Assembly (NCBI GenBank): GCA_963664375.1
Contig: OY761449.1
Coordinates: forward strand, 2,845,695 to 2,909,694
From: Dehalococcoidia bacterium
Lineage (GTDB): Bacteria > Chloroflexota > Dehalococcoidia > Lucifugimonadales > UBA3495
Length of the DNA stretch: 64,000 nucleotides
Reading direction: 5' to 3'
The translations under genes and the position numbers were made by a program. The notes beneath the pieces were generated by a model that was not told the origin of the DNA, searched no databases, and saw nothing but the letters and a program-made list of their open reading frames with translations. Within the stretch, counting starts at the first letter, position 1. Every line of letters starts with the position of its first letter. Shown here piece after piece: positions 19,023-45,263 of this stretch.

Positions 19023-19655
19023 ATGAGGATGGCCGAGGCTGAGTTCACATCCTATTACGATTTCCGTTGACCCTTTGTCTACAATGCCAACATGTGGTTG
19101 GCAAAGGTTCGGGAGCTGACCGGGAATCCCATCGAGATTGACTGGCAGCCCTTCTCACTGGCCCAGGTGAACAATAAGGACGGCGACAACGTCTGGGAGA
19201 GGCCCGATGTCGTCAGCGGTAGCGACCCGGTCCTCCTGGCTCACCAGGCCGGATTGGCGATCAAGCGGCAGGGCAAGGAGGCGTTCGAGGCCTATTTCAT
19301 GGCTCTCCTCAAGGCTCGCCATGAGGACAAAGCCGACCTCAACGACCGCGCGGTGATTGATGCAGCCGGCGAAGCCGCAGGCATCGACATGGCACGTTTC
19401 CGCGAGGACATCGCCGACCCTACTTTGTTGGATGAACTGGCGGAAAGCCACACCAAGGCCGTCGACGAGTACGGCGCCTTTGGCGTTCCCACGTTCGTGT
19501 TCGACAACGGGAACTTCGCCTTCCTCAAGATGTTCATCCCGCCCGAAGAGCAGTCGGTCGAGATTTACGACAACCTCATGAAGTCCATGAGCGAGTACGT
19601 CCACGTTGGCGAATTCAAGCGCCCGCAGCCCCCGTGGCCGCATGGGGTCATCTAG
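19023..19655 (+). CDS. DsbA-like thioredoxin-fold protein with an in-frame TGA (19068-19070) at the active-site Cys position (candidate selenoprotein)
   Basis: AGGAGG precedes ATG 19023. The reading MRMAEAEFTSYYDFR-TGA-PFVYNANMWLAK is in frame with the track ORF 19092..19655. D-F-R-[TGA]-P-F-V-Y matches the family D-x-x-C-P-x-x-Y motif. The cis-Pro loop FGVPTFVF is present, and total length is 210 codons. Confidence 0.7.
19072..19107 (+). promoter_or_regulatory. SECIS-like hairpin 3' of TGA 19068
   Basis: CCTTT (19072-76) pairs with AAAGG (19103-07) and GCCAAC (19086-91) pairs with GTTGGC (19097-102). The loop is AUGUG and there is a 9-nt 5' bulge. Confidence 0.5.
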
Positions 19656-20406
19656 GCTCCCCGCCAGCCCGGCCGCCGGTGGCCGGGCACGCAATTCCGC
19701 GTCTTTGCTGGGGTTCCAATTCAGGGACCCCAGTCTTCTTGACCATGCCTTAGTCCACCGCTCCTACTGCAACGAGCACGGACTGGAAGCGTCGGATTCC
19801 TACGAGCGGCTGGAGTTCCTTGGAGACGCGGTAATCGAGCTGGTGATTTCCGAGCTGCTCTACCGGCAATTCCCCGATGCGGACGAGGGCCAGCTCACAA
19901 AGGCGCGGTCTTCGCTGGTCAAGGGAAAAGTCCTGGCGGGAGTGGCCCGCAGGCTGGGTCTGGGCGAAATGCTGAAAGTCGGCCACGGCGTCGAGGAGTC
20001 GGGCGGCAGGGAGCAGGACTCGGTGCTGGCCGCGACGTTTGAGGCCGTGATTGCCGCCGTCTACCTCGACCAGGGTCTCACGGCGGCCCGGGAATTCGTG
20101 TGCCGGAACATGGCCCCGGAACTGACAGACATATCCAGGCTGGGCGCGCCGCCCGAAAACCCCAAGTCCCGGCTCCAGGAACTCTTGCAGGGGCAGGGAT
20201 TGCCTACCCCGGCGTACAGGCCAGCGGGACGCGAGGGGCCTGATCACAGCCCCGTTTTCAGGGTGGAGGCGGTCGTCGGCGACCGGGTAATCGGCCATGG
20301 TCAAGGCGGCAGAAAGGCGGACGCCGAGAAAGCCGCTGCGGAAGATGCGCTGGAGTTGCTCCAGACCGACGAATTTCTGAGGGAGTCCGATACCGAGGGC
20401 GCCTAG
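19642..20406 (+). CDS. rnc: ribonuclease III
   Basis: LLDHALVHRSY...ERLEFLGDAVIELVISE is the RNase III signature, and a C-terminal dsRBD is present. The start is uncertain (ATG 19606 or 19642). Confidence 0.85.
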   Translation: MGSSRLPASPAAGGRARNSASLLGFQFRDPSLLDHALVHRSYCNEHGLEASDSYERLEFLGDAVIELVISELLYRQFPDADEGQLTKARSSLVKGKVLAGVARRLGLGEMLKVGHGVEESGGREQDSVLAATFEAVIAAVYLDQGLTAAREFVCRNMAPELTDISRLGAPPENPKSRLQELLQGQGLPTPAYRPAGREGPDHSPVFRVEAVVGDRVIGHGQGGRKADAEKAAAEDALELLQTDEFLRESDTEGA

Positions 20407-20484
20407 ACGGACATCGCCGGATGTCGTAGCCGCATACGAACCTCCCGCGGCAAAAGGATCCAATTACGCCTGACAGCTTTACTT

Positions 20485-20584
20485 GCGTCATTCCGGCGAA
20501 AGCCGGCATCCAGAGTAGCTCAATCCCGTAGAATGATTTGGACACGGAAACCCCTGGATTCCGGCTTTCGCCGGAATGACGGGG
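20485..20584. repeat. paired-hairpin element
   Basis: gcgtcattccggcgaaagccggcatccaga ... ctggattccggctttcgccggaatgacggg. Confidence 0.85.
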
Positions 20585-20618
20585 GCAATTTTGCGACACG
20601 CCCTAGGCAAATACAGCC

Positions 20619-21572
20619 ATGCTGAGACTCTTTCGACGCAACCGACAGGACGAAAAAAAGGCCACCGAACGGGCGGTCAAACCCAGCCGCGAGCGCTGGT
20701 TCGGCCGCATCGTTGGCCTGCTGCGTTCGCCGCGCCTCGATGACGCAGTCTGGGACGAAATCGAGGAGATACTCATTTCGTCTGACGTGGGCGTGGAGAC
20801 ATCCCTTAGAATCATTGAGCGTCTCAAGGAACAGGTCAGATCCGGGGAGTTGGATTCTCCGGAGGCGGTCACCGAATCGTTGAAACAAGCCCTGACCAGC
20901 GACCTTACGGCGGATTTCGAGGAATTTCTGCCCGGCGACGATGGCGCGGCGAAACCCTACGTAATCCTGATGGTCGGCGTGAACGGGGTTGGCAAGACCA
21001 CCAGCATCGGAAAGCTGGCCCACCATTTCACCGAGTCCGGCAGGAAAGTCGTAATCGGAGCCGCCGACACCTTCCGCGCCGCGGCCGCCGAGCAACTGGA
21101 AATCCTGGGCGACCGCGTGGGCGTTGACGTCATCCGCCACGCCGCTGGCGCCGACCCCGGGGCCGTCGCCTACGATGCCTTCCAGGCCAGCAAGGCCCGC
21201 GGGGCGGACATCCTGATTATCGACACCGCCGGGCGGCTCCACACCAAGTCGAACCTGATGGAGGAACTGCGCAAGATTCACCGGGTGTTGCAGCGGCAGG
21301 ACGCAACCGCTCCCCACGAGGTGATTCTCACGCTGGACGCAACGACCGGCCACAACGGGCTGGCCCAAGCCAAGTCTTTCCGCGAAGCGGTGGACTGCAC
21401 CGGCATTTTCCTCGCCAAGCTGGACGGCACCGCAAGGGGCGGCATTGTCCTCGCAATCCGACAAGAGTTGCAGGTGCCCATTCTGTTTATCGGCACCGGC
21501 GAGGGCATGGCCGACTTTGCTCCATTCGATGCCGACGATTTCGTGGATGCCCTGCTTGAGCCGGTTTCCTGA
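20619..21572 (+). CDS. ftsY: signal recognition particle receptor
   Basis: 317 aa: [39 protein letters not shown]. Confidence 0.9.
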
Positions 21573-21615
21573 CCGGCTTTTCCCCCGCAATTTGTTCCGC
21601 CCTGTCAGGTGACCG

Positions 21616-24000
21616 ATGGCCGACGCTGTACTGTGGTTCCTGACAATTCAGTTGCTGGGCGTGGCGGCGCTCCCTTGGGTCTTCCGGCTCTTCCGGTTCC
21701 TTCCCGACCGCGGCGTGACGCTGGCCAAACCCGCGTCCGTGCTGGTCATCTCCTACCTGGTCTGGGTGTTCGGGCTGGCCCGGCTGCTGCCCAACACGGC
21801 GCTCACCATCTGGATCATCGTCCTCTGCATAATTGTCGCGTCCATGTGGCTGGCCGGGCGCCAATGGGGAGAACTGCGGGAATTCCTCCGTCAACGATGG
21901 CAGTTGATGCTGGCCGGGGAGTTGGTGTTCCTGCTGATGTTCGTGGCCTGGGCATTGGTGGTTTCCGGTTCGCCGGGAATCACCCATACCGAGAAGCCCA
22001 TGGACTTCATGCTGCTGAACGCCGCCCACCAAGCGCGGTATTTCCCGGCGGAGGACGCCTGGCTTTCCGGCCACTCCATCAGCTACTACTACTTCGGCCA
22101 CATCATCGTCGCCACCCTCTCCAAGATGAGCGGCGTAGTGACTTCGGTCGGCTACAACCTGGGCGTCGCCACTGTCCCGGCACTGGCGGGAGCCGTTGCC
22201 TTCGGCCTGCTCTACAACCTGGTTCGGCTGGCGGGGGGCGGCATGCGCTGGGCGCTGGGACTGGGAGCGTCCGCGCCTGCGGTCATCCTGCTGGCGGGAA
22301 ACCTGGCCGGAGCGCTGGAATTCGTGCGCATCCGCGGCTGGGGCGGCGCCGGGTTCTGGGATTGGGCCAGCATCCAGGGGATGGCGGCGCAGGCCGCCGA
22401 GAGCGGCGTGTTTCCCGGAGAGTTCTGGTGGTGGTTCCGCAGCACGCGAATTATCAACACCACTTCCTCGGACGGCGCAACTCTCGACTACACCATCACC
22501 GAATTTCCCGCGTTCAGCTTCCTGCTGGGAGACCTGCACGCCCACGTAATTGCGATCCCGTTCCTGCTGCTGGCCGTCGCAGCCGCCCTGAACGTCTACT
22601 GCTCCGGCGACCGGCTGGAGCTTGCCTGGCTGCGGCGGAACCCGGCGCAGACCGTCTCGGTGGCCCTGGCAGGCGGGGCGCTGGCCTTCATCAACTTCTG
22701 GGATTTTGCCACGTTCATGGCGCTGTTCGCTGCGGCGCTGACGCTCAAGGGATGCCGGGACTACCCCGGTTCTCTGCTCCACGCGGTCAATGGGGCGGCG
22801 TCGGTGTTCCTCCCCTTGTTCCTGCTGGCCATCGTCATGTTCGGGCCGGTGTACTTTTCCTTCAGCGGCCAAACCGACGGGGTGCTGCCCCTGCGGGATG
22901 TAGCCACCAATCCCTTCCACCTGTTCATAGTGTTGGGGCTGTTTATCCTGCCCTGCCTGGCGCTGCTGGCGCAAAAGCTGGGCGGCATCCGCAGGCCGGA
23001 AGGGCCGGACGCTCCCGTGGCGGTGGTGGCCCTGGTGATCGCGGCAACACCCTTCGGGATCTGGATGGCAACTGCGTTCCTGTTCACCATGGTTGCCGAC
23101 GGCGCAGGCGCAGCCCTGGACGATCTGGGCCGCCGCATGGCCCTGGCGTTGCCCGGAGCCATCGTCGTCGGCCTTGGGGCCTACGCGGCTGCTGGCCGGG
23201 CAAGGGGCAACGATGGAGTTGCCATATCCTTCGTGTTGTTGCTCATGGCCCTTGGGTTCTTCCTGGTGATGGTTGCCGACCTCTTCCACATAGTGGACGC
23301 CTTCAGCGGCCCATGGCGGCGGATGAACACCGTTTTCAAGGTCTACTACCAGGCCTGGCTGCTACTCGGGATAGCGGGAACTTTCGCCGTATACGCCCTG
23401 TGGTCAAGCAAGGCGCAGGCCGGGGATACTCGACGCTGGACATCGTTGGCGGCTATGGCCGGAAAATGGGGAGGAGCCGGATTCCTTGCCTTTCTGCTGG
23501 CGGCCTCGTTCTATTACACTCTTGGGGCCGCGCTGGACCGGAGCGGCACACCCTACGAAGGCCGCACCCTCGACGGTCTCGCCTACCTGAAACTGGAGGA
23601 TCCGGCGGAGCATGCCGCCATCGCCTGGCTGCGAGACGACGCGCCGCCGGGCCGGATCTTGGAGGCCGTCGGCGACGATTACAGCAGGTTCGGCAACGTG
23701 TCGGCCAGCACCGGGCTGCCGACCGTGCTGGGCTGGGTCGGCCACGAGCTCCAGTGGCGGGGATCGTCGGAACCCTTCGCTGGCCGGGCCGAGGATGTAT
23801 CAGCCATCTACACGTCCCAAGACCCGGGAGAAGTCCGGCGGTTGCTGGAAAAGTACCAGGTGCGCTACGTTTACCTTGGAAAGAGAGAGCAGGAGAAATA
23901 TGGCGTATCCTCGCTGGAGAATTTCAAGGACTTTCTCAAATCCGTCTTTCAGCAGGATGACGTAGTAGTCTACGAATTTTCGACCATTGCCGAGCCATGA
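21616..24000 (+). CDS. DUF2298 / TIGR03662 'Chlor_Arch_YYY' polytopic membrane protein
   Basis: 794 aa and highly hydrophobic. It carries the diagnostic GHSISYYYFGH motif. Confidence 0.75.
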   Translation: MADAVLWFLTIQLLGVAALPWVFRLFRFLPDRGVTLAKPASVLVISYLVWVFGLARLLPNTALTIWIIVLCIIVASMWLAGRQWGELREFLRQRWQLMLAGELVFLLMFVAWALVVSGSPGITHTEKPMDFMLLNAAHQARYFPAEDAWLSGHSISYYYFGHIIVATLSKMSGVVTSVGYNLGVATVPALAGAVAFGLLYNLVRLAGGGMRWALGLGASAPAVILLAGNLAGALEFVRIRGWGGAGFWDWASIQGMAAQAAESGVFPGEFWWWFRSTRIINTTSSDGATLDYTITEFPAFSFLLGDLHAHVIAIPFLLLAVAAALNVYCSGDRLELAWLRRNPAQTVSVALAGGALAFINFWDFATFMALFAAALTLKGCRDYPGSLLHAVNGAASVFLPLFLLAIVMFGPVYFSFSGQTDGVLPLRDVATNPFHLFIVLGLFILPCLALLAQKLGGIRRPEGPDAPVAVVALVIAATPFGIWMATAFLFTMVADGAGAALDDLGRRMALALPGAIVVGLGAYAAAGRARGNDGVAISFVLLLMALGFFLVMVADLFHIVDAFSGPWRRMNTVFKVYYQAWLLLGIAGTFAVYALWSSKAQAGDTRRWTSLAAMAGKWGGAGFLAFLLAASFYYTLGAALDRSGTPYEGRTLDGLAYLKLEDPAEHAAIAWLRDDAPPGRILEAVGDDYSRFGNVSASTGLPTVLGWVGHELQWRGSSEPFAGRAEDVSAIYTSQDPGEVRRLLEKYQVRYVYLGKREQEKYGVSSLENFKDFLKSVFQQDDVVVYEFSTIAEP

Positions 24001-26834: not shown

Positions 26835-26890
26835 GGCAAATAAGGTCAAGTCCTATACTGGAAGCGCGACGAATCGCGAAAGCGCAATAA

Positions 26891-26988
26891 CGAATAGAGC
26901 TTACGCAGTTGAGCAAAAATTCCCTCTCCCTTGAGGGAGAGGGTGAGGGTGAGGGTGAAACCCCAACTGCGTAACTCCTAAACGAATA
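26891..26988. mobile_element. MITE-like element B, copy 2 (shorter)
   Basis: cgaatagagcttacgcagttgagcaaaaat-REP-ccccaactgcgtaactcctaaacgaata. Confidence 0.65.
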
Positions 26989-27040
26989 CTGTATGAGCGC
27001 CGCGTCCCGGACTCGATACGGGTTGCAAGGTCTCTTAACC

Positions 27041-27080
27041 GTTCCCTCTCCCTCCGGGAGAGGGTCAGGGTGAGGGCGTC
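27041..27080 (+). repeat. REP-like unit
   Basis: gttccctctccctccgggagagggtcagggtgagggcgtc. Confidence 0.9.
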
Positions 27081-28329
27081 CCCTTACTCTCGCAGGAACG
27101 AAAGATGCCGCTTTGACGTTCACCTTGTCCGCAAAAGGCGATTGTCACACACCCTCCAAGAATCTGGTTTTCTAAATCTAACGGCACTCCCAAAGGCGTT
27201 TGAGCAGGAACATCCATTGATTACCGCCAAATGGCATCTGTGGCTGGGTATCGCTGTCAGCGTGGTAATGCTGCTATTCTTGGCCTGGCAGGTCTATCAG
27301 TTTGACGACCCATCGGGGCTGATCGACGAGCTGGCCGAGGCCAATTACATCTTCCTGATCCCGGCCGTAGCGGTCTATTTCGTCGGCGTCTGGTTCCGTG
27401 CCTTGCGCTGGCAATTCCTGTTGAACCCGCTGCGGTACTTCCCCGTGAAACGGCTCTATCCGGTGGTGGTCATCGGCTACACTGCCAACAACCTGCTGCC
27501 CATGCGGCTCGGCGAGTTGGTGCGCTCCTACTACCTGGCGCGGCAGGAAAACTTCAGCGCCAGCTCCGCCCTCGGTAGCGTTGCCGTCGAGCGGGTGTTC
27601 GACGGCCTGACCCTGATCGTACTGGTGGCCGTAACGGTGCCCTGGCTGCTACTGCTGGGAGCGTTTGACTGGACCGCCGGAGTATCGCAGGGAACCGCCG
27701 CGGTATTGGCGGGGGTCGTGCTGTTCGTGTTCGGCGGGTTCCTGCTGCTTTTCACCCTCCTGGCCGTGTGGCAGGGATTCTCCGACCTGGTGCAGCGGCT
27801 GCTTTCCATGCTGCCGGGCAGGCTCGGCGGTCTGGCGCTGCGTTTCTACATTTCATTCGCCGCGGCGCTGAGCATCCTGGACTCTCCGCGCAAGCACCTG
27901 GCATTGATCGCCCTCTCGCTGCCCATCTGGTTCTGTGAATTCATTGTCTACTACCTGGTCTCCTACACCTTCGATATAGGCTCTCACTTCGATTCGCAAG
28001 TGACGTACATTCTCGCAATCGCCCTGCTGACCGCCACGTCCAACCTGGCAACTGGCATACCCAGCGCCATCGGCGGCATCGGCCCCTTCGAGGTCGTCGC
28101 CCAGCAAACCCTGGTGGCCCTCGGCGTGGGCGTGGGTGTGGCCGTTGATTACGCCCTGGTGGTGCACCTGGTGGCATTGTGGCTGCCCGTGAACGCCGTG
28201 GGGCTGGCGATCCTCTGGAAGCAGAACTTGAACCTGCGGCAGCTGGTCCGTGACCCGACGCCGGAGGAAAGCGGGCCGGTTGCCGAGTCGCCTTCCGTGA
28301 ATTCATCCCCCGCGGGAGGAAGCTCATGA
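27070..28329 (+). CDS. UPF0104 / LPG-synthase-TM (flippase-like) membrane protein
   Basis: The pattern FRALRWQFLL...GYTANNLLPMRLGELVRSYYL fits the family. The first about 50 codons of the track ORF run through a REP unit, so the true start may be TTG 27217. Confidence 0.65.
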   Translation: MRASPYSRRNERCRFDVHLVRKRRLSHTLQESGFLNLTALPKAFEQEHPLITAKWHLWLGIAVSVVMLLFLAWQVYQFDDPSGLIDELAEANYIFLIPAVAVYFVGVWFRALRWQFLLNPLRYFPVKRLYPVVVIGYTANNLLPMRLGELVRSYYLARQENFSASSALGSVAVERVFDGLTLIVLVAVTVPWLLLLGAFDWTAGVSQGTAAVLAGVVLFVFGGFLLLFTLLAVWQGFSDLVQRLLSMLPGRLGGLALRFYISFAAALSILDSPRKHLALIALSLPIWFCEFIVYYLVSYTFDIGSHFDSQVTYILAIALLTATSNLATGIPSAIGGIGPFEVVAQQTLVALGVGVGVAVDYALVVHLVALWLPVNAVGLAILWKQNLNLRQLVRDPTPEESGPVAESPSVNSSPAGGSS

Positions 28330-29651: not shown

Positions 29652-29674
29652 ACAACGGCCAGAGTCATCTGGCA

Positions 29675-29712
29675 GTTCCCTCTCCCTTCGGGAGAGGGTT
29701 AGGGTGAGGGCG
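29675..29712 (+). repeat. REP-like unit
   Basis: gttccctctcccttcgggagagggttagggtgagggcg. Confidence 0.9.
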
Positions 29713-29750
29713 TCCTCTCTTTCGACGCCAAACTGCTGAAGGGCAGGATT

Positions 29751-29778
29751 TCACCCCCACCCTAGCCCTCCCCCTGAG
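29751..29778 (-). repeat. left half of a REP-like unit interrupted by the IS
   Basis: tcacccccaccctagccctccccctgag ends at the IS boundary. Confidence 0.8.
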
Positions 29779-30885
29779 ACGCTTGATGCACATTAACAAC
29801 TGAAAAGATCAAGGAAAGCGCCGGGGATGGCTTATGCTGACCTTACCCGCTCAAAGGAGGCCGGCAGCCATGAACCTGGACACTTTCATGGTGGCATTGT
29901 ATACCATCGTGGATGACCTCTATCAGGCCAATATCGCCCCCCTTATGCCGGTTCGCTGCGGCCCCAAGCCACGGCTCTCTGACAGCGAGATGCTGACCCT
30001 GGCCCTTTGCGCCCAGTGGCAGGGCGCATCGGAACGGGCCTTCCTCCGTTACGCCGCCCAGCACTGGCGCGGCTATTTCCCCAACCTGACCACGCAAAGC
30101 GCCTGCAACCGCCGCATCCGCAAACTGGCTTGGGCCTTGGCCGCGCTGGCTCAGGAGGCGGCCCGGGAACTGGCGGCTCACGCCGCCCCCTTTCAGGTGG
30201 TGGATACCGTGCCGCTGCCCCTGATGCGCCGTTGCCGCGGCCGGAAACACAAGCTCTTTGGAACCGAAGCCGACATAGGCCGGGGCGGCGCCGACCGGGA
30301 CTGGTATTACGGCTGCAAGCTGATGCTGGCGGCCACGAATCAAGGGGTGATCACCGGCTTCCTGCTGTCTCCGGCCAGCACCGAAGACCATTGGGCCGCC
30401 GAAGCCTTCTTCTGCTGGCGGGCCGACCCTCTGGGTACTCCCGTATCCCCGCAGGAAATGCCGCCCCGCCGCAACGGGCAAAAACACGTGGGACCCAAAG
30501 GCCCGCAATGGCCGCAGTACGGCCCAGGGGAGCCGGCGGCGGCGCCGTACCTGGGGGACAACGGTTTCTTCGGGGCCGGATGGCAACCGCGCTGGCTACG
30601 CCAGTATGGAGCGGCGGTGCTGGCGCCCGGCAATTACGTCGGGGAGAGGGCGAAACACTGGCGAAGCAGGCACCGCTCGCGGTTGCAGGTGGTGGAGACG
30701 GTCAACGGGTCGCTGGAGCAGGTCTTCCACCTGCATTTCCCCGAGGCCCGCAGCGTGTGGGGGCTGCTGACCCGGGTGTCGGCCAAGGTGGCGGCTCTGA
30801 ATCTGGGGATCCAAGTCAACCGGCAATTGGGCCGCCCCGATTTGGCTCTCGCCACTCTTTTCAGTTGTTAATGTACATCAAGCGT
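29779..30885 (+). mobile_element. IS982-family-like insertion sequence (1107 bp)
   Basis: The 29-bp terminal inverted repeats acgcttgatgcacattaacaactgaaaag and cttttcagttgttaatgtacatcaagcgt match at 28 of 29 positions. There is a single transposase ORF and the ends begin with AC. Confidence 0.8.
29834..30871 (+). CDS. DDE transposase (IS982-like)
   Basis: LDTFMVALYTIVDDLY, LSDSEMLTLALCAQWQG, VDTVPLPL, YYGCKLMLAATNQGVITGF, YLGDNGF, VVETVNGSLEQ. An alternative start is ATG 29870. The stop lies inside the right inverted repeat. Confidence 0.75.
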   Translation: MLTLPAQRRPAAMNLDTFMVALYTIVDDLYQANIAPLMPVRCGPKPRLSDSEMLTLALCAQWQGASERAFLRYAAQHWRGYFPNLTTQSACNRRIRKLAWALAALAQEAARELAAHAAPFQVVDTVPLPLMRRCRGRKHKLFGTEADIGRGGADRDWYYGCKLMLAATNQGVITGFLLSPASTEDHWAAEAFFCWRADPLGTPVSPQEMPPRRNGQKHVGPKGPQWPQYGPGEPAAAPYLGDNGFFGAGWQPRWLRQYGAAVLAPGNYVGERAKHWRSRHRSRLQVVETVNGSLEQVFHLHFPEARSVWGLLTRVSAKVAALNLGIQVNRQLGRPDLALATLFSC

Positions 30886-30900
30886 TCAGGGGGAGGGGAC
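30886..30900 (-). repeat. right half of the interrupted REP-like unit
   Basis: tcagggggaggggac directly abuts the right IS end. Confidence 0.8.
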
Positions 30901-31015
30901 TTTTGAGATGGTTTCTAAATGTTGCAAATATTGTGCCGTCGGGTACAATCTAGCGTAGCCAAACGGGGCAAGCCATCCGAGTGGGCAATGCCCGGACGAT
31001 CCAAAGGAGCATACA

Positions 31016-32230: not shown

Positions 32231-32305
32231 CGCCTGGGCATCGAGTCTTCCCTCCGGGAGAAGGCCAGAACGAAGGCGTTGCCCTGCCTGCACAGGTCCC
32301 CTAAA

Positions 32306-32430
32306 TTCTCCCTCTCCCTTGAGGGAGAGGGTTGGGGGGAGGGTGCAATCGCGGGCGTCAGTACCATTCGACAAGCTCATGGTGAGCCTGTCGAACCACG
32401 CCCTAACCCTCCCCCGGAGGGAGAGGGAAC
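32306..32430. repeat. inverted REP pair flanking a 'ttcgacaagctc...gtgagcctgtcgaacc' repeat
   Basis: ttctccctctcccttgagggagagggttggggggaggg ... ccctaaccctcccccggagggagagggaac. It sits at the convergent ends of the MBL gene and mutL. Confidence 0.85.
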
Positions 32431-32445
32431 TTCAAAGGGCCTTGC

Positions 32446-34191: not shown

Positions 34192-34200
34192 AATCGTCCG

Positions 34201-34638: not shown

Positions 34639-34821
34639 TCGCCGTATCAAGCCCTTCCAGTTCCGGCTTTCCCCCGCCAAGGACATCAACGGCCCTGGTC
34701 AGCAAAGGGATACCACTAGAGTATATTACAATCCGCCAAATGAATCAGCACCGGCGAGGCAACTTGACGACGCTCCCTGACGGACGCCGCGCATTGGTCA
34801 CGCGAGGAAGATGCCTGGGAA

Positions 34822-34961
34822 GTGTTTGCAAACCACAGACGGGCCAGAAATAGCCTGCAAAATCCCCTCTCCCTTGAGGGAGAGGGTTAGGGTGAGGGTG
34901 AACTCCCTGCATCAAATGACGCGGCTGTGCCCAATTCTTCCCGCCAATTGAGTTTGCAAAC
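34822..34961. repeat. REP core (34862-34900) flanked by gtttgcaaac palindromes
   Basis: gtttgcaaac occurs at 34824-33 and 34952-61. The core is atcccctctcccttgagggagagggttagggtgagggtg. Confidence 0.6.
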
Positions 34962-34966
34962 ATGGC

Positions 34967-35326
34967 CTACCCAGCCGCGGCTACCACCGAGTCGAGGACA
35001 GCCGCGCCACCCCCGACGAACAGTTGGTCTCCGACGCGCATCATGGGCCGCCTGACCAGCTTTGGTTCCTGCAACATCAGGCGGACCATCTCGTCTTCGG
35101 AAAGTTCCTGTCCGGCCAGGCCCATCTGCTTCAGACTGGGACTGCGGCGGGCGAAAATCTGATCAATGCCCGCGATAGCAGCCATCTCCCTTACCTCTGC
35201 TTCGGTGAAGGATTCCTTGAAATAGTCACGTTCATTGACTGCCAGGTCATTTTGCAGGAGAAACTCTCTCGCTTTCCGGCAGGTGGATCAACGGGGCCAC
35301 CAATAGAGATTTACAGGCTGGCTCAT
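34967..35326 (-). CDS. ArsC/Spx-family thioredoxin-fold protein with an in-frame TGA (35290-35288) replacing the first Cys of CxxC (candidate selenoprotein)
   Basis: ATG 35326 gives MSQPVNLYWWPR-TGA-STCRKAREFLLQNDLAVNERDYF...EVRE, joining in frame to the track ORF 34967..35185 (MAAIAG...LVRRPMM). Total length is 119 codons, the normal size for the family. Confidence 0.75.
35239..35282 (-). promoter_or_regulatory. SECIS-like hairpin 3' of TGA 35290
   Basis: In the mRNA, GCGAGAGA-GUU-UCUCCUGC (35272-35254) forms 8 pairs with one mismatch. An outer stem CUGCC/GGCAG spans 35282-78 and 35243-39. Confidence 0.5.
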
Positions 35327-35443
35327 GGTGTCCTCTTCTTGCGATTTGAGACCGCGCTTGGCTGATGTGACCGTCGCCATTTTATACCGGCGAGCGGCCT
35401 CCGAAAAACAGCACCCGCGCCAATTGGCGGGGTTTTTCAATAA

Positions 35444-35470
35444 TTCCCTCTCCCTCAATGGAGAGGGAGA
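35444..35470. repeat. REP hairpin core without the G-tract tail
   Basis: ttccctctccctcaatggagagggaga. Confidence 0.7.
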
Positions 35471-35504
35471 ATGAAAAGGCCCAGCGTGCCAATTGGCCGT
35501 AGTT

Positions 35505-38069: not shown

Positions 38070-38126
38070 GACAAGGCGTTCCAGCGGGGAATGATAGTCC
38101 CCATTCTATAACAAGAATATATGCGC

Positions 38127-38267
38127 CTAAGAGTGTGTTTAATAAGTTCCCTCTCCCTCCGGGGGAGGGTTAGGGTGGGGGCGTACCCCTGATTGCTCAG
38201 GAACGGCGGATGCGTCTGAAACCCGCTCTTTGTCAGTGAACCGAACCTATTAAACACTCTCTTAGAG
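38127..38267. mobile_element. MITE-like element A, copy 1 (141 bp)
   Basis: Inverted ends are ctaagagtgtgtttaataagtt and aacctattaaacactctcttag. The interior (REP plus cgtacccctgattgctcaggaacg...) is nearly identical to 60226..60364. Confidence 0.8.
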
Positions 38268-38343
38268 GGTTTTTCCAAAGCCCATTTCACCCGCAATGAG
38301 CAGGCTGTGTTGATATATGTCATTCCTGATAACACGAAGAGGA

Positions 38344-38380
38344 CGCCCTCACCCTAACCCTCTCCCGGAGGGAGAGGGAA
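38344..38380 (-). repeat. REP-like unit
   Basis: cgccctcaccctaaccctctcccggagggagagggaa. Confidence 0.9.
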
Positions 38381-38480
38381 TTGGTCGCACACCCCCTTTT
38401 AAGGCGATGAGTTCACTTGAAGAAAAAAGGCCCCTTCTCCTGTGGGAAAGGGCCGGTATTTCGGTGGGTGCTGAGGCGAG

Positions 38481-39251
38481 CTACTCTTTCCAGAAGCGCT
38501 CTTCCTTGAACCGCCAGCCCTGCGGGGGCAGCTTGGCCTTCATGTCTTCGATCATTCCGGGGTGGCCGCAGGCGTAGACCAGGGTGTCGTCCTTGGGCAA
38601 GTGATATTTCTCCAGGTATTCCTCGGCGATGGCATTGACTCGGCCCGTCTGTCCCTTCCAGCTCTCGTTCTTGGGATCGCCGGGGCGGCTTATGGTAGGT
38701 ATGAACCTGACCACGTCCGGGTGCTTCTCAGCCAACTCGGCGAATTCCACGTCGTAGGTGAGCTCGTCGTAGTGGCTGGCTCCCAGCAAAATGTAAAACA
38801 CATGGCCCTCGCGATTGTTGTGAAGGTGGTCGCGAACCATGCTGACGGAGGGCGAAACTCCGGTAACGGTAGACAGCATGAAATGGTGATGCGCCTTTTG
38901 GTCCATGGTGAAAATGCCCTTGGCCCGCGGCCGGATGGACATGGCGTCGCCCAGTTGCAGGTTCCACATCAGCGGGGTGAGTTCGCCGTCGTGGACCAGC
39001 TCCACGAAAACTTCCAGCGCGTTTTCGTGGGGAGCGGAGGCAATGGAGTAGGCCCGCTCTATCGGCCCCAGGCCAAGGGTGCAGTATTGGCCCGGCTTGA
39101 AATTGAACGACCCGCCCTCCTCGGGCTCGAACCGCATCACCATCAGGTCTTCCGTGATGTCCCGGCGCTCGACCAGGTATGCCTTCGGGAAAGCAGGATT
39201 GGGGGAGAGGTCTACGTCGCTGACTCTCCCGGTGGCCGTCGTCTCTACCAT
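38481..39251 (-). CDS. ferredoxin-NADP reductase-like FAD/NAD(P)-binding oxidoreductase
   Basis: 256 aa: FKPGQYCTLGL...RAYSIAS is the FAD-binding RxYS motif. GAGGAGG precedes the ATG. Confidence 0.75.
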   Translation of the reverse strand: MVETTATGRVSDVDLSPNPAFPKAYLVERRDITEDLMVMRFEPEEGGSFNFKPGQYCTLGLGPIERAYSIASAPHENALEVFVELVHDGELTPLMWNLQLGDAMSIRPRAKGIFTMDQKAHHHFMLSTVTGVSPSVSMVRDHLHNNREGHVFYILLGASHYDELTYDVEFAELAEKHPDVVRFIPTISRPGDPKNESWKGQTGRVNAIAEEYLEKYHLPKDDTLVYACGHPGMIEDMKAKLPPQGWRFKEERFWKE

Positions 39252-39332
39252 CGTATATCCCGCCTCCTCTTCACCTGATGTGCCTTTCAGAATCGGAACC
39301 CGTGGAATAAGGGCAAACTGAACGGGCTTTGA

Positions 39333-42161
39333 TTATTCGTCTTGCGTTCTTATCAATCGGGCTGGCCGGACATCCAGCCCGGGCAGCATCGGCGCCGGGT
39401 CGAATTCCTCGCTGGCCTCCATGTCGATTGCCAGTTGGCCGAACAGCGCGGTGGAGGCCACCATACCCCGCGGCAGACCGGCATCGAACCTTGCCACGCC
39501 CGGCAACTGGCCGTCGGCGGTCTGCACCGCAACTTTGGCGCCTTCGGGCAGGCCCAGGGACGCCGCGTCGTCAGGGTTGACGTCGACCCACTCCTCACGC
39601 TTGATGCGGTTGCGCTTCCCCTTGACAATTTCCATCTCACGATTCTGTTGCAACAGGACCCGTCCCGGCGCGAACCATAGGCCGTACCCCTCCGGCAATT
39701 CGGGCGCTGAAGCGAACAGCGAGGGAGTCAGCGGTATCGCCTTCATGTCGGAGAAGCCGTCGCTGTACAGGGCGGCGGTGCCAGGGTGGCCGGGTTCAGG
39801 GCAGGGCCATTGCAGCCCCTTGTGCTGTTTGCTCGCGTACAGCACCTGCGTGGGCTGGGGGCTTTCCAGTTGCGTCCTCAGAACTAGAGAACCCTCGCTT
39901 TCCAGCCTGCGATGGGAAATTCCGCCGTAGATGGGGGCTACCCTGGCGATTTCATCCATGATTTCCGCGGGCGTCAAAGATGGAAGGGCGTCCGGTTTTA
40001 TGCGTTGCGCCAGTTCCGTCAGCACGTGGCCTTCCGGCCTTGCTCCCGTTTCCCTGCGCGAAGCGGGGTTCAACCGTTGCACCCGGCGCTCCAGGTTGGT
40101 AAAGGTGCCGTCCTTTTCGGCAAAGGTCGGACGGGGCAGCACCACGTCGGCCCGCTGGGCCAGCGGGGTGAGGAAAGTGTCGTGCACCACCAGCAGGTCG
40201 AGATTGCCGAAAGCGTTGAATGCGTCGCCGATCTTTCCGTTGGTGAAATTGGGGCTGTCTCCAATGACCACCGTCGCCTTCAGTTTGCCGCTCGCGGCCG
40301 CGTCAACCATCTGCGCCACGGGCAGACCGGGAGCGTCCGGGAGCGCAGCGCCCCACGCCGACTCCAAGGCCGCGCGGTCGTCCGCATCGGATACCCGGCG
40401 GTAGCCGGGCAGGCGGTCGGGGACGCAGCCCACGTCCCAGGCGCCCTGTTCGTTGGCGCCGCGACGCATGGGATAGAGACCGGTGCCCGGCCGGCCGATG
40501 TTGCCGGTCAACAGGGCCAGGTTGACCATCGTGAGCACGCAGTTCCGGCTCTGAGTCCGGTCGATATTGTCCAGCCCGTATACAACGGCGGCTTCTGCGG
40601 CTTCTGCGAACATGCGGGCGGCAGCAGCGATTTGTTCCTCTGAGACCCGGGTTTCCTCAACGATTTCCGCCATTTCCCGGGAGCGCAGTGAATAACGGAG
40701 GGTGGCGGGGCTCTCGCAGTTCTCCTCCAGCCATTCTTCGCGTTCCAGCCCCTGGTCAACGATGCTCCTCAGGATGCCAGCCAGCAGCGTCAGCTCGGTG
40801 CCGGGCGCCGGGCGCAGCCAGATGTGGGCGTAGCGGGTCAGCTCAACCTCGCGGGAGTCAATCACTACCAGCTTTGTGTTCTTACGGGCGGCCCGCTTGA
40901 TGGGAACGGCAACCACGTTCTGCTCTTCGGTGACGTTGGTGTTGAACGCCAGAATACAACCCGCCCGCTCCAAGTCCCAGATGGGGTTGGTGGCCGCCGC
41001 CACCCCCAGCGAATCCTCCAGACCCAGCACCAGCTCCGGGTCGAGATTGGAGGTGTGGTCAACGTTGTTGGTGCCCATCACCACCCTGGCGAATTTCTGC
41101 GCCAGGTAATGCTCCTCGTTGGTGCTGGTGGGCGAGGTGAGCAGCGCGAACTCATCGCCGTTCACACTTGCGAGACGCTCGGCCACAAAATCCAGCGCCT
41201 CGTCCCACGTAGCTTCAACCAGAGCATCCCCCCGGCGTATAAGCGGCGTCTGGAGACGGGCGGAGTCGTTGACGAATTCCAGGCCGAACTTGCCCTTGAA
41301 ACATGCCTGGCCCTGGTTGGCCGGGGAGTTGATTTCCGGGACTGCCCGGATTAGCTCATCCTTGCCGTTGAACTCCAGGTTCAACTGGCAACCCACGGGA
41401 CAGTGGGGGCAGATGGAGCGCTCGACGCGACGCGCCTTCTCCCACTTGTGGCCCCTTTCCACCAGTGCGCCCACCGGGCATACGTCGATGCAGGAGCCGC
41501 AGAACTCGCAACCCGACTCCAGCAGCGACGTGCCGAAGGATGTCCCCACCAGGGCCTGGCCGCTCCGCTCGGTGAAGCCGATGGCGTCATCGCCCCGCAA
41601 CTCCTCGCAGGCGCGAACGCAACGCCCGCAGACTATGCAGAGGTTGTAGTCGCGGTCGTAAAAGGGATCGGACACCTCGAGGGGAATGTCGCGGTACTTG
41701 TAGCCCAGCGGCGACTCGAGGTTCATGCCCAGGTAGCGAACGGTGTCCTTGAGTTCGCAACGCTCGTTCTTGGGGCAGGTAACGCAGCGGTCGTTGACCG
41801 AAACGTGGCGAAGGCATACGTCGCTGGGGCCGCAGATGTCGATGCGATGGCAGGTCAGGCAGCCGTTGGGATGCTCGGCGATCAGCATCTCCATCACGGA
41901 ACGGCGCAACTGGTCCACGGCCGGGATCTGGTTATGCACCACCATCCCGTCCGCCACGGGCAGCGTGCAGGCCGCCGGGTATCCGCGCTGCCCTTCCACC
42001 TCGACGACGCACATCCGGCAGGCCGCGTAGGGCTTCATGCCGGGGTGGTAGCAGAGGTAAGGCAGGTAGAGACCCGCGTCAATGGCCGCCTCAAGGACCA
42101 TCTTGCCGGGCTGGGTGGTCACCTCAACGCCGTCTATGCTTATGGTGATGTCGTCGGGCAT
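39333..42161 (-). CDS. NuoG/FdhA-like Fe-S molybdopterin-oxidoreductase-fold subunit
   Basis: 942 aa with an N-terminal 2Fe-2S region (CYHPGMKPYAACRMCVVE) and 4Fe-4S motifs, followed by a MopB fold. The FDH active-site region reads GTNNVDHTSNLDP, with no Cys and no TGA. Confidence 0.75.
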   Translation of the reverse strand: MPDDITISIDGVEVTTQPGKMVLEAAIDAGLYLPYLCYHPGMKPYAACRMCVVEVEGQRGYPAACTLPVADGMVVHNQIPAVDQLRRSVMEMLIAEHPNGCLTCHRIDICGPSDVCLRHVSVNDRCVTCPKNERCELKDTVRYLGMNLESPLGYKYRDIPLEVSDPFYDRDYNLCIVCGRCVRACEELRGDDAIGFTERSGQALVGTSFGTSLLESGCEFCGSCIDVCPVGALVERGHKWEKARRVERSICPHCPVGCQLNLEFNGKDELIRAVPEINSPANQGQACFKGKFGLEFVNDSARLQTPLIRRGDALVEATWDEALDFVAERLASVNGDEFALLTSPTSTNEEHYLAQKFARVVMGTNNVDHTSNLDPELVLGLEDSLGVAAATNPIWDLERAGCILAFNTNVTEEQNVVAVPIKRAARKNTKLVVIDSREVELTRYAHIWLRPAPGTELTLLAGILRSIVDQGLEREEWLEENCESPATLRYSLRSREMAEIVEETRVSEEQIAAAARMFAEAAEAAVVYGLDNIDRTQSRNCVLTMVNLALLTGNIGRPGTGLYPMRRGANEQGAWDVGCVPDRLPGYRRVSDADDRAALESAWGAALPDAPGLPVAQMVDAAASGKLKATVVIGDSPNFTNGKIGDAFNAFGNLDLLVVHDTFLTPLAQRADVVLPRPTFAEKDGTFTNLERRVQRLNPASRRETGARPEGHVLTELAQRIKPDALPSLTPAEIMDEIARVAPIYGGISHRRLESEGSLVLRTQLESPQPTQVLYASKQHKGLQWPCPEPGHPGTAALYSDGFSDMKAIPLTPSLFASAPELPEGYGLWFAPGRVLLQQNREMEIVKGKRNRIKREEWVDVNPDDAASLGLPEGAKVAVQTADGQLPGVARFDAGLPRGMVASTALFGQLAIDMEASEEFDPAPMLPGLDVRPARLIRTQDE

Positions 42162-42173
42162 TTCGCTCCCTTG

Positions 42174-42210
42174 TTTCCCGCTTCCCTTGGGAAAGGGTTA
42201 GGGTGAGGGC
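42174..42210 (+). repeat. degenerate REP-like unit between the nuoF-like and nuoG-like genes
   Basis: tttcccgcttcccttgggaaagggttagggtgagggc. Confidence 0.7.
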
Positions 42211-42226
42211 CTTCCCCTGCCGGATG

Positions 42227-43963
42227 CTACCGGCGGGAACGCGCCGGCGAGTATCTCGGTTGATTGCAGACGCCCGTGGGACAGGTGTGCCTGAGAATAT
42301 GATCTTCGAACTCTCCGGGGAAATACCGCAGGGCGGACGACACGGGATTGAATCCCAACTGGCCGTGTCCGCAGAGGGAACCGGCCTGCATGTTCTCGCC
42401 GGTGCGCCGCATCAGGTCCAGGTCTTCCGGCTCGCCCTGGAGGTCGCAGATGCGTTCCAGCACCTCCAGCAGGTGGCTCATGCCCATCCGGCACGGGAAG
42501 CACTTGCCGCAGGACTCGTATTGGCAGAAGGCAACAAGGGCGCGCGTCAAATCGACGACGCAGGTGTCTTCGTCGGCGGCGATGATGCCGCCGGAGCCCA
42601 GTATGGCGCCAGCGCTGCGCAGCACGTCGAAGTCGAGGATCAGGTCCACGTTGTCCGCGCCAAGCACGCCGCCCAAGGGGCCGCCGGTCTGGAGGAATTT
42701 CAGCTTCTTGCCGCCGCGGATACCGCCGGCCGCATCGTACAGCACGTCTTTGAGGTTGATACCGAGGGGCACTTCCATCATGCCGGTATAGTTCAGCGCC
42801 CCGGACAGGCACAGGATGGCCGTGCCGGTGCTGCGGTCGTGGCCGATGCCAGCGAACCACTCGCCGCCGCGGGACATTATTTCCGGCACGTAGGACAGCG
42901 TCTTGACGTTGTTGATATTGGTGGGCCGCCCGAACAGTCCGAACTGCGCCGGGAAGGGCGGACGGAAGCGGGGCATGGCCCGCTTGCCCTCGATGGCCTC
43001 CATCAGGGCGCTTTCCTCTCCGGCCACGTAGGAATCCCCGGTCAGGGCAACCTCGATATCAAAGTCAAAGCCGGAACCCAGAATGTCCTCGCCCAGCAAG
43101 CCGAGCTCCTGGGCCTGGGCAACCGCGGCGCGGCAACGGTCAATGGGGCCGTCGTGGCCGTGGCGGATGAAGATGTATCCCTTGCTGGCGCCGGTGGCAT
43201 AGCCGCAGAGGATGACGCCCTCAACCAGCGTGTGCGGGTCGCTTTCCAGGATGGCCTTGTCGTTGAACGCCCCGGGGTCACCCTCTTCGCAGTTGCAGAG
43301 CACGTACTTGTCCCGCGACGGATTGCCCGCCAGGAAGCGCCACTTGGTCGCCGTGGGGAAGGCTGCGCCGCCACGCCCGCGGAGTCCCGACTCGTTCACC
43401 TGCTGGAGGGCATCGTCGGGGGTCATTTCCGTCAGCGCCCGGTTGAGCGCCCGGTACCCCCCGTTGGCGATGTACTGGTAAATGTCCAGCGGGTCGATGT
43501 TGCCCGCGTTACGCAGCGCAACGCGGTTTTCCCAAGCCCGCATAGGGTGTAGAGCGAGATCCCTCAACCCGGCGGGAGGAACAAAATTGTCGTCGGCATC
43601 GGGAGGGGCGAGATAGCCCAGCGCCAGCTCGGTAACCGGCTGGCCTCCGGCGACGTGGCCCGCCACGACTTCACCGGCGCGCTCCGGGTCAAAGTTTCCG
43701 TAGAACACGCGCGGCCCTCCCGGAAGCTGCACGTCCAGCAGCGGCTCGGCAAAGCAAAGTCCGATGCACCCGACTTCGGAAAGTCGGGCGTCCACGCCCC
43801 GGCTCTCCAGGGCCGACCGCAGTACCTCTACCACCTCAATGCCCCCGGCGGCCTGCCCGCACAGGGCCGTGCCCACCCTGAGCCATGGCCGTTCGGCCTC
43901 CGACTCCCAGCGCCGCAGGGCCTCTCGCTCCAGTTGCTCAAAACTAGCGGGCATGGACTTCAT
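42227..43963 (-). CDS. NuoF-like NADH-binding FMN/4Fe-4S subunit with an N-terminal thioredoxin-like ferredoxin extension
   Basis: GLRGRGGAAFPTATKW and ESCGKCFPCR are NuoF motifs, and about 150 extra N-terminal residues are present. The start is taken at MKSMPASF (43963); the track ORF runs to 44044. Confidence 0.8.
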   Translation of the reverse strand: MKSMPASFEQLEREALRRWESEAERPWLRVGTALCGQAAGGIEVVEVLRSALESRGVDARLSEVGCIGLCFAEPLLDVQLPGGPRVFYGNFDPERAGEVVAGHVAGGQPVTELALGYLAPPDADDNFVPPAGLRDLALHPMRAWENRVALRNAGNIDPLDIYQYIANGGYRALNRALTEMTPDDALQQVNESGLRGRGGAAFPTATKWRFLAGNPSRDKYVLCNCEEGDPGAFNDKAILESDPHTLVEGVILCGYATGASKGYIFIRHGHDGPIDRCRAAVAQAQELGLLGEDILGSGFDFDIEVALTGDSYVAGEESALMEAIEGKRAMPRFRPPFPAQFGLFGRPTNINNVKTLSYVPEIMSRGGEWFAGIGHDRSTGTAILCLSGALNYTGMMEVPLGINLKDVLYDAAGGIRGGKKLKFLQTGGPLGGVLGADNVDLILDFDVLRSAGAILGSGGIIAADEDTCVVDLTRALVAFCQYESCGKCFPCRMGMSHLLEVLERICDLQGEPEDLDLMRRTGENMQAGSLCGHGQLGFNPVSSALRYFPGEFEDHILRHTCPTGVCNQPRYSPARSRR

Positions 43964-44450
43964 CCTGGCGCGGAGTTGACGGCGCATCATCCCGCAGCAG
44001 CCCGGAGACACGTTCGGCGGCGGAATGCGGGGTGACCCGGCCAATCAGGTGATGGTCTACGGACATCACCGGGGCAAGCGAACATGCGCCCAGGCAGGTG
44101 TTGAACCGGACGGACAGCCGGTGATCGGGGCGTTCACCCTCGTCTTCCAGGCCGGACGCCTCCAGCACGGCCTTCACCACCGCCATCGAGCCCATCAGGT
44201 GGCAGGAAGCGCCCCAGCAGACCTCGACCTGGCGCTCGGCGGGCGGCTGGAAACGAAAGTTGGGGTAGAAGGACGCAACCGCCCACACGTCGTTGACAGT
44301 AGCGCCCATAAAGTCGGCCACCAGTTCAACGGCTTCGCGGGGGATGTAGTGCAGTTCGTCTTCGACAGCCAACAGCGAGGACAAAACAGTTACGGTAGGC
44401 TGCGGCTGCCCCCGGACGGCCCGGTCTATCCTTTGTTCCAGACCATCCAT
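43944..44450 (-). CDS. NuoE-like 2Fe-2S subunit
   Basis: VCWGASCHLMG...CLGACSLAPVM. ATG 44450 (MDGLEQ) has AGGAG upstream; the track ORF runs to 44498. Confidence 0.75.
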   Translation of the reverse strand: MDGLEQRIDRAVRGQPQPTVTVLSSLLAVEDELHYIPREAVELVADFMGATVNDVWAVASFYPNFRFQPPAERQVEVCWGASCHLMGSMAVVKAVLEASGLEDEGERPDHRLSVRFNTCLGACSLAPVMSVDHHLIGRVTPHSAAERVSGLLRDDAPSTPRQDEVHAR

Positions 44451-44615
44451 TCGGCAAGACTCCTGGGTACGAAAGCCGATACCGCCCCGCCGGTTCACGG
44501 GGATGGCATCGCTTTCCCTATCCCATTCGTGAAAGAATTTACAATCGTTCCGATACTACCATACCGCCGGATTCCCGTTCAACACAGAGCAGCCATCAAT
44601 TACGGCCATCAGCAC

Positions 44616-44653
44616 GGAAAAGCGACAGGAGCGAGCGCACGGCCCGCTCCTGT
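44616..44653 (-). terminator. candidate intrinsic terminator after the UGSC gene
   Basis: On the minus strand, ACAGGAGCG-11 nt-CGCTCCTGT is followed by CGCUUUUCC, 44 nt after the stop. Confidence 0.4.
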
Positions 44654-44696
44654 TTGCTATGGCCGGGTCTCACCGGGCCGCGCCGTCGGTACAGGT

Positions 44697-45263
44697 CTAC
44701 TCCACGCGGGCCACGCTGCCCAGCAGGATGCGCTCGACCTCCGGCAGCAGGGCCTCGGCGCGCTCGCGGCATTCATCGTCCGAGAGGCTGGACAGGGGAT
44801 GGGGAGCAACGGCGTACTCGTAGTCCGGCACGCCCATCATGCGGGTCATGGCCTTGGCGGTGTTGTTGAAAACGTGGGTGATGATGGACGCGGTGGGCAG
44901 GCCCAGGCGCTCCATTTCGATTCCGTCGTGCACACTGCACGAGCTGCATGAGCCTCAATCACCCACCCCAGTGATCAGCACGTCCACGCCGTTGAGCATA
45001 TCCTCAACGACGTCCGGCTTGGTCGGAAGGGAGGCGGAATGCTTGTTGAACATACGGACTTCCTTCAGTCCGTGCCTTTCCTGCAACATGCGGCCCAGTT
45101 CGTTGAGAACCTTGTCGGAGTTGGCCTTGGAGTTTTCCAGCAATCCGAGGGTCTTGCCCTCCAGCGAGCTGGGGCGGTCGTTGAGCCGGAAATCCCCCAC
45201 CTGGAGTTCCAGGCCCGCGGGATTCACAAGCCTGACGTTCCTGACCATAACCGTGTCTGCCAT
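44697..45263 (-). CDS. GrdB-like 'UGSC' protein with an in-frame TGA (44957-44955) in a U-x-x-C-x-x-C motif (candidate selenoprotein)
   Basis: Track ORFs 44955..45263 and 44697..44933 are in one frame, separated only by TGA plus 7 codons: ...VDVLITGVGD-TGA-GSCSSCSVHDGIEMERLGLPTASI.... AGGAGG lies 9 nt before ATG 45263. Total length is 188 codons. Confidence 0.75.
44926..44942 (-). promoter_or_regulatory. SECIS-like hairpin 3' of TGA 44957
   Basis: In the mRNA, UCGUGCA-GUG-UGCACGA is a perfect 7-bp stem starting 12 nt after the UGA. Confidence 0.5.

Follow-up and report, generated by a model that had tools for sequence, protein, structure and literature searches.

In-frame UGA codons in three thiol-redox genes of a Dehalococcoidia genome are very probably read as selenocysteine

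The DNA analysed here, called the window below, is a stretch of 64,000 nucleotides from contig OY761449.1 of a Dehalococcoidia bacterium. It contains genes for a DsbA-like, an ArsC/Spx-like and a UGSC-family protein, each with an in-frame TGA. From comparison with related sequences, we propose, with a probability of about 93%, that the three genes encode thiol-redox selenoproteins and that their UGA codons are read as selenocysteine (Sec). An earlier note on this DNA, made from its letters, had placed the TGAs at 19068 on the forward strand and at 35290 and 44957 on the reverse strand, and had suggested that each replaces a redox Cys. Both statements are borne out. A Cys is aligned with the TGA in DsbA orthologues, in Spx (Cys10), and in actinobacterial UGSC proteins. 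The TGA-bearing relatives have 53-97% protein identity, and the reading frame flanking the TGA is intact in them.

The DsbA-like gene (19029..19655, +) contains the motif YYDFR-U-PFVY and ends with a TAG stop at 19653-19655. Its translation reads MAEAEFTSYYDFR-TGA(19068)-PFVYNANMWLAK, with the Sec-UGA at 19068..19070, and the frame is open from ATG 19023 or ATG 19029. The start is probably ATG 19029 rather than the in-frame ATG 6 nt upstream, because the Shine-Dalgarno (SD) sequence AGGAGG (19016-19021, +) is 7 nt away from 19029 and only 1 nt from 19023, and because the homologues begin MA[DE]xxF. The good ribosome-binding sites that had been noted earlier on the upstream starts are thus present, with an SD at all three genes, although the DsbA-like start moves from 19023 to 19029. 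With Cys placed at the TGA, the protein matches the Pfam family DSBA (PF01323) with E = 1.7e-18 and 67.6 bits (gathering score 25.6), and the match runs across the TGA; there was no match among the NCBIfam models. Full-length orthologues of 210 aa have DFR-C-PFVY at the Sec site, with the Cys aligned to the TGA, and one Cys-form orthologue sits in a matching neighbourhood (helicase, OGG, ADH, poly(A) polymerase, DsbA, RNase III, FtsY). A metagenome scan gave 63 distinct related sequences, 62 of them with TGA at the Sec codon and one with TGC.

The ArsC/Spx-like gene (34967..35326, -) has 119 codons, the motif WWPR-U-STCRKA, and a TAG stop at 34969-34967. The translation from ATG 35326 is MSQPVNLYWWPR-TGA(35290)-STCRKAREFLL, the Sec-UGA occupying 35288..35290. 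The SD AGAGGA (35331..35336, -) lies 4 nt before the ATG, and a GAGG box is conserved at the equivalent place upstream of the homologues. With Cys at the TGA, the protein matches Pfam ArsC (PF03960) across the TGA with E = 1.3e-15 and 57.9 bits (gathering score 24). Its score of 42.5 bits with NCBIfam NF041106, 'ArsC family (seleno)protein', is under the cutoff of 85, with the UxxC motif present, and that of 66.8 bits with TIGR01617, the model for the Spx/MgsR RNA-polymerase-binding regulator, is under the cutoff of 75.05. The closest solved structure is Spx (E = 1.7e-11), in which Cys10 of the CxxC aligns with Sec. The Sec codon is TGA in the window and at 67/67 species loci from Dehalococcoidia, SAR202 or Chloroflexota, with the flanks WWPR-*-S[TSA]CRK, and no Cys variant of the gene was found among these 67 loci.

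The UGSC-family gene (44697..45263, -) has 188 codons, the motif GVGD-U-GSCSSC, and a TAG stop at 44699-44697. The SD AGGAGG (45271..45276, -) is 7 nt before ATG 45263. The translation reads VLITGVGD-TGA(44957)-GSCSSCSVHDG, with the Sec-UGA at 44955..44957, and the Sec-spanning stretch is GVGD-U-GSCSSCSVHDGIEMER. The protein scores 145.8 bits with NCBIfam NF041046, 'UGSC family (seleno)protein', above the cutoff of 125, and contains the U-G-S-C motif. With Cys at the TGA, the Pfam PF24696 match spans the TGA with E = 1e-55. The Sec aligns with Cys in the GDCGSC of actinobacterial homologues, to which NCBI also gives the name 'UGSC family (seleno)protein'. As the gene order is conserved, the UGSC gene could be scored in 45 loci from the ArsC-like scan, and the Sec codon is TGA in 46/46 cases, made up of the window and the 45 syntenic species loci that were examined. 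No solved structure of a UGSC homologue was found.

A small hairpin follows each UGA within the coding sequence. Counting the U of UGA as nt 1, the hairpin of the DsbA-like gene (19085..19103, +) comprises nt 18-36, with 7 bp and the loop AUGUG containing G27-U28. That of the ArsC-like gene (35254..35272, -) comprises nt 19-37, with the loop GUU or AGUUU and an invariant G27-U28. The UGSC hairpin (44926..44942, -) comprises nt 16-32, with 7 bp and the loop GUG containing G23-U24. The loop sequences AUGUG, GUU and GUG are as they had been given in the earlier note, which also had the hairpins begin roughly 20-25 nt after the UGA. The apical loops do begin 19-23 nt after it, but the stems begin already at 12-15 nt.

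Sequence comparison among the homologues gives strong evidence that these hairpins are maintained. In the ArsC-like family, 98.7% of the cells of the 7-bp helix are paired, and compensatory double changes are seen in 17 cells, 15 of them C-G to U-A and two A-U to G-C. The C-G to U-A change is coupled to a change from Ala to Val, which is balanced by a synonymous Leu codon. None of 500 shuffles reaches the covariation observed, and the synonymous entropy is 0.23 in the hairpin vs 0.70 in the rest of the gene. In the window copy, the helix has an A22xC34 mismatch, as one of six such sequences. The family helix of the DsbA-like hairpin is paired in 96.9% of the cells. Its pair 18:36 alternates between C-G (32 sequences) and U-A (19 sequences), and again 0/500 shuffles reach the observed covariation. 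Most of the DsbA-like homologues have the loop GUGU or AUGU and a one-base bulge in the stem. The hairpin region of the Sec forms folds with -9.65 +/- 1.0 kcal/mol, vs -4.7 to -7.0 kcal/mol for five distinct Cys forms, and the Cys-form genes fold a different small hairpin there. The UGSC hairpin is invariant at the nucleotide level among the examined loci. Codons +5 to +9 of this gene have a relative synonymous entropy of 0.03 vs 0.62 elsewhere in the gene, the lowest of 118 sliding windows (p < 1e-5). The comparison at the strain level (loci L001-L007) has too little variation to assess the hairpins.

The codons directly before the Sec-UGA, at 19065-19067 (+), 35293-35291 (-) and 44960-44958 (-), all end in U. 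Across species, this codon is nearly frozen at its synonymous site, as GAT in the UGSC gene (entropy 0.0) and CGT in the ArsC-like gene (0.04); it is CGT in the window copy of the DsbA-like gene. A U before the UGA may be a context requirement for Sec insertion.

The fit of the hairpins to the published model of the bacterial selenocysteine insertion sequence (bSECIS) is partial. The model has an apical loop of 3-9 nt, an upper stem of 4-16 bp, 16-37 nt from the UGA to the loop, a G in the first two loop positions, and a free energy of <= -7.5 kcal/mol. All three lie inside the ranges: for the DsbA-like, ArsC-like and UGSC genes, respectively, the loop is 5, 3 and 3 nt long and the spacing from the UGA to it is 21, 22-23 and 19 nt, and each stem has 7 positions. 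A G is present in the first two loop positions in the UGSC gene (GUG) and in the ArsC-like gene (GUU or AGUUU), and in the DsbA homologues with GUGU, but not in the AUGUG loop of the window DsbA-like gene. When folded alone, the DsbA-like hairpin (-10.0 kcal/mol) and the UGSC hairpin (-8.9 kcal/mol) are below the energy threshold, while the canonical ArsC-like hairpin of the window (-6.1 kcal/mol) is above it. For the window ArsC-like sequence, there is an alternative fold at -9.2 kcal/mol, and one with an additional outer helix at -14.4 kcal/mol. This outer helix (nt 9-15 with 46-52) was discarded, as it is not conserved in the homologues.

Several results weigh against the reading of these UGAs as Sec. 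The AUGUG loop of the DsbA-like gene and the -6.1 kcal/mol of the ArsC-like hairpin miss the published bSECIS constraints. The 60 nt after each UGA do not fold significantly better than dinucleotide shuffles (z = -0.5, -1.1 and -2.0), nor than 2,000 synonymous recodings made with the codon usage of the window (z = -1.7 to +0.5). A selA, selB, selD or tRNA-Sec was found neither in the window nor in the related flanks that were fetched (1.77 Mb), although these flanks are largely syntenic and say little on the rest of the genome. To these may be added that only the UGSC hairpin passes a strict bSECIS filter, which asks for a perfect stem and for G within the first two positions of the loop, and which 8.2% of the 1,595 TGA trinucleotides of the window also pass. 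As the three hairpins have no sequence in common, only a generic shape, a joint covariance model of them would not discriminate, and covariation was assessed family by family. The shared architecture, which we defined post hoc as 7 stacked positions with <=1 mismatch and a 3-5 nt loop with GU starting 18-24 nt after the UGA, occurs at 3.6% of the window TGAs and in all three genes. This is suggestive, although not independent, the architecture having been derived from these three genes. Hairpins no better than shuffled controls had been named earlier as a refutation; in energy this is the case, but the covariation of the ArsC-like and DsbA-like hairpins beats 500/500 shuffles. It is covariation and synonymous constraint, and not stability, that validate these putative SECIS elements. 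Where the genome is GC-rich, the stability of a hairpin tells one little on whether it is a SECIS, and covariation and constraint at synonymous sites are the tests that work well.

In the proposed mechanism, SelB with Sec-tRNA(Sec) and GTP would bind the hairpin in the coding sequence, as in the E. coli fdhF paradigm from which this step is taken. SelB would then deliver Sec at the UGA, and translation would run on to the TAG stop. In the resulting proteins, Sec would be the attacking nucleophile, as U-P-F-V in the monothiol DsbA-like protein, as U-x-x-C in the Spx/ArsC-like protein, with the potential to form a selenenylsulfide pair, and as U-G-S-C in the third. Standard gene callers, which take UGA as a stop, would give N-terminally truncated or split products.

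Such products are what the public protein sets contain. In the NCBI, ENA and JGI sets, the DsbA-like protein is represented by products of 187-194 aa, the ArsC-like protein by products of 89-99 aa, among them a 96-aa product, and the UGSC protein by fragments of 102 and 72 aa, so the under-calling that had been predicted for this DNA is confirmed. The explanation offered for it, that the called starts sit inside the hairpin loops, is correct for the DsbA-like gene, where ATG 19092 lies inside the loop and is the public start of the 187-aa product. In the UGSC hairpin, GTG 44933 does begin within the loop, at its last base; the public calls, however, took a later ATG, giving 72 aa. Thus, across hundreds of Dehalococcoidia/SAR202 metagenome-assembled genomes (MAGs), three conserved redox proteins are public only as truncated or split products without the catalytic residue. 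As a result, functional inference and pangenome counts will go wrong at these loci, in a lineage that is abundant in the sea and associated with sponges.

Could the TGAs be genuine stops, in pseudogenes or as sequencing or assembly errors? The public gene callers do stop at them and report truncated products. However, metagenomes and 46-67 independent genomes at the species level have the same TGA, the frame and the catalytic motif being kept on either side of it, and four related strains carry the identical TGA, so we give this explanation almost no credence. The same small weight goes to a variant code in which UGA would be a sense codon for Trp or Gly throughout the genome. A few database translations (P0047, P0087, P0136, P0271) have W at the TGA position, but these are most likely gene calls made under translation table 4. 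In the window, TGA ends 11 of the 47 other open reading frames (ORFs), at lengths matching their homologues, and in-frame TGAs occur at redox-Cys positions only, with none at Trp or Gly positions. With TGA acting as a normal stop in the rest of the window, the recoding is site-specific, and a genome-wide reassignment is excluded.

Each locus might instead encode a short peptide upstream and, independently of it, a downstream protein from an internal start, with the hairpin regulating re-initiation. Two of the hairpin loops do have a start codon inside them or next to them (ATG 19092 and GTG 44933), and gene callers accept such starts. Against this, the catalytic motif (DFR-C/U-P, C/U-xx-C or C/U-GSC), which is part of a single chain in the full-length Cys homologues, would be missing from the downstream products, no SD precedes the internal starts, and the internal start is not conserved: the ATG in the DsbA-like loop is replaced by GTG in many homologues, and the called starts of the ArsC-like gene vary (89-99 aa). 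We consider this very improbable. A little more weight, but still very little, can be given to readthrough of the UGA without Sec, by near-cognate insertion of Cys or Trp or by recoding without SelB, the hairpin being a general stimulator of readthrough. It would account for Sec machinery not being observed in the sequence examined and for two of the three hairpins departing from the strict bSECIS model. However, these are known selenoprotein families with the UGA exactly where the published motifs put Sec, and the GU of the apical loop is at distances from the UGA like those in E. coli. Furthermore, the clade member UBA1141 is listed in BSepDB, a resource restricted to species having the Sec pathway, and BSepDB reports that 12.6% of the accepted bacterial selenoprotein genes have no canonical SECIS, in keeping with the departure of two of the three window hairpins from the strict model.

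Other searches touching on the Sec pathway gave little. The only tRNAs that Rfam and ARAGORN found in the window are three ordinary ones, and neither the window nor any of the fetched loci gave a tRNA-Sec. A tblastn search of all fetched loci with E. coli SelD and SelA, a weak test, had no matches. A codon-usage scan of 457 eligible in-frame TGAs of the window showed no convincing further readthrough gene, but the scan is crude and missed the short ArsC-like gene at the final thresholds.

The claim in the earlier note that the genome is rich in selenoproteins is supported indirectly. BSepDB (2026) has two Dehalococcoidia MAGs in its top ten bacterial selenoproteomes, UBA1141 with 49 genes and isolate 10f4566d... 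with 46 genes. One of our scan loci (L067) is a contig of UBA1141, and on it lie, in unchanged order, orthologues of the ArsC-like and UGSC genes, both with the TGA. A 2026 review (PMC13188914) tabulates the 'UGSC-containing protein' (NF041046, UGSC), the 'DsbA-like protein form 2' (PF01323, DxxUP), and the 'arsenate reductase-like protein' with UxxC (NF041106), and the three window genes fit these motifs exactly. Among the selenoprotein genes of the sea, 8.2% are for UGSC proteins, one of the most abundant marine selenoprotein families, and knowledge of DsbA-like and ArsC-like selenoproteins dates back to 2006. Neither the gene families nor the selenium-rich habit of this lineage is new to the literature, and the three genes are further members of known selenoprotein families. 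They lend independent support to the report, made at the level of a database, that some Dehalococcoidia belong with the bacteria richest in selenoproteins.

The window genome belongs to Dehalococcoidia (Chloroflexota) and is related to the SAR202 cluster. When the ArsC-like protein was searched against GTDB, with a single genome for each species, 68 loci were obtained, and every one of them is from a Dehalococcoidia, SAR202 or Chloroflexota MAG. L009, the closest GTDB representative that turned up, has about 88% nucleotide identity, and the window genome is a different species. Several contigs in ERZ21830300, a long-read metagenome assembly from ENA, match the window at 96-97% identity. In the 90% cluster containing the DsbA-like fragment, one member is filed under Geodia barretti, a sponge, a hint of an association with sponges for some of the relatives. 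Exact-sequence look-ups of the window proteins of 942, 256 and 234 aa returned no record.

The G+C content of the window is 62.5%. At such a G+C, TGA is normally expected to be the dominant stop codon, yet TAG is the most frequent, with 28 of the 47 ORFs ending in TAG, 11 in TGA, and 8 in TAA. TAG is also the stop of all three selenoprotein genes.

In the region 39333-45263 (-), the UGSC gene is located directly upstream of a cluster coding for a NuoE-like (2Fe-2S) protein, a NuoF-like (51K) protein, and a 942-aa molybdopterin oxidoreductase. The order UGSC / NuoE-NuoF-oxidoreductase / FNR-like reductase / mutS / ArsC-like / mutL is kept in at least 46 Dehalococcoidia species. The molybdopterin oxidoreductase reads NNVDHTSNLDPE at its presumed catalytic position and has no in-frame TGA. 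Going by the E. coli FdhF motif, formate dehydrogenases would carry the catalytic Sec/Cys-His at the NNVDHTSNLDPE position, and the 942-aa protein is probably not a formate dehydrogenase. Just upstream of the UGSC gene are two conserved genes without a Pfam match, at 46107-47267 (-) and 45297-45755 (-). Orthologues of the former (342-346 aa, 94% identical) share a 90% cluster with the unrelated 102-aa UGSC fragment, which looks like a clustering artefact of the database.

A repetitive extragenic palindromic (REP)-like intergenic element of about 45-60 nt, TTCCCTCTCCC-TNNG-GGGAGAGGG-TTAGGGTGAGGGCG, is present in about 25 copies in the window, with a hairpin followed by a G-rich tail. Examples are at 10434-10491, 15225-15282, 26900-26965, 27026-27083, 29660-29717, 32288-32353, 34843-34908 and 35424-35489, and further ones at 38131-38188, 38338-38386, 50518-50566, 54049-54106, 56466-56531, 57949-58006, 60230-60287 and 60455-60503. 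Copies are found in either orientation and often form inverted pairs at a distance of about 160 nt (38129/38343, 60236/60456), and the ArsC-like gene has copies on both sides. Its six-frame translation gives recurring 'SLSLEGEGxGEG' strings. A second short intergenic repeat, TTCCGGCTTTCGCCGGAATGACG, forms a small hairpin and has at least 5 copies (9389-9423, 20559-20593, 48643-48677, 58225-58259, and inverted at 58149-58192). A tandem array at 49588-49797, with a period of 42 nt (14 aa) and 4-5 units, lies near the 5' end of an ORF of the NAD_binding_2 family (48683-49837, -), and a separate 33-nt tandem array is at 2655-2783. The 345-aa ORF at 29834-30871 (+) has a weak match, under the gathering score, to the DDE transposase family PF13612, and the related ENA loci end before it.

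How do the three genes compare with known systems? In the SECIS of E. coli fdhF, the hairpin is just 3' of the UGA, and G23 and U24 of the apical loop are bound by SelB. The window hairpins resemble it in that they, too, follow the UGA directly within the coding sequence and have GU in a small apical loop, at nt 23-24 in the UGSC gene and at nt 27-28 in the DsbA-like and ArsC-like genes. Unlike the fdhF element, they have no obvious bulged U, and they have no sequence similarity to it. The AUGUG loop of the DsbA-like gene also differs from the consensus bSECIS in having its first G at the third position.

Among the selenoprotein families, the UGSC protein shares the motif and the length of about 180 aa with the known family (NF041046, PF24696), of which Cys forms exist, and there is no substantive difference. 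The DsbA-like protein shares the DSBA fold and D-F-R-U-P with form 2 of the DsbA-like selenoproteins (PF01323, DxxUP; PMC13188914). It is of the single-nucleophile type, without a resolving Cys, and its nearest solved relatives are the DSBA-domain proteins 7dk9/7dka and Rv2466c-type proteins. The window genome is of the same class as the selenoprotein-rich Dehalococcoidia MAGs of BSepDB but a different species.

The one mildly unusual element of the three is the ArsC/Spx-like protein. It has the ArsC fold in common with the arsenate reductase-like selenoprotein (NF041106) and the Spx/MgsR branch, and its U-S-T-C-R-K-A aligns to C10-x-x-C13-R-K-A of Spx. As it scores under both curated cutoffs (NF041106 and TIGR01617), it belongs to a divergent subfamily. 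It is conceivable, though rather unlikely, that this is an unmodelled Sec-only subfamily whose members could be selenenylsulfide-switch regulators or reductases, obligately selenium-dependent throughout the class and encoded in a conserved block beside mutS and mutL. The idea comes from the sub-cutoff scores, the UGA in 67/67 loci, and the nearest solved relative being the redox-sensing regulator Spx. Unlike the known ArsC-like families, this subfamily is seen in the Sec form only among the 67 Dehalococcoidia/SAR202 species loci.

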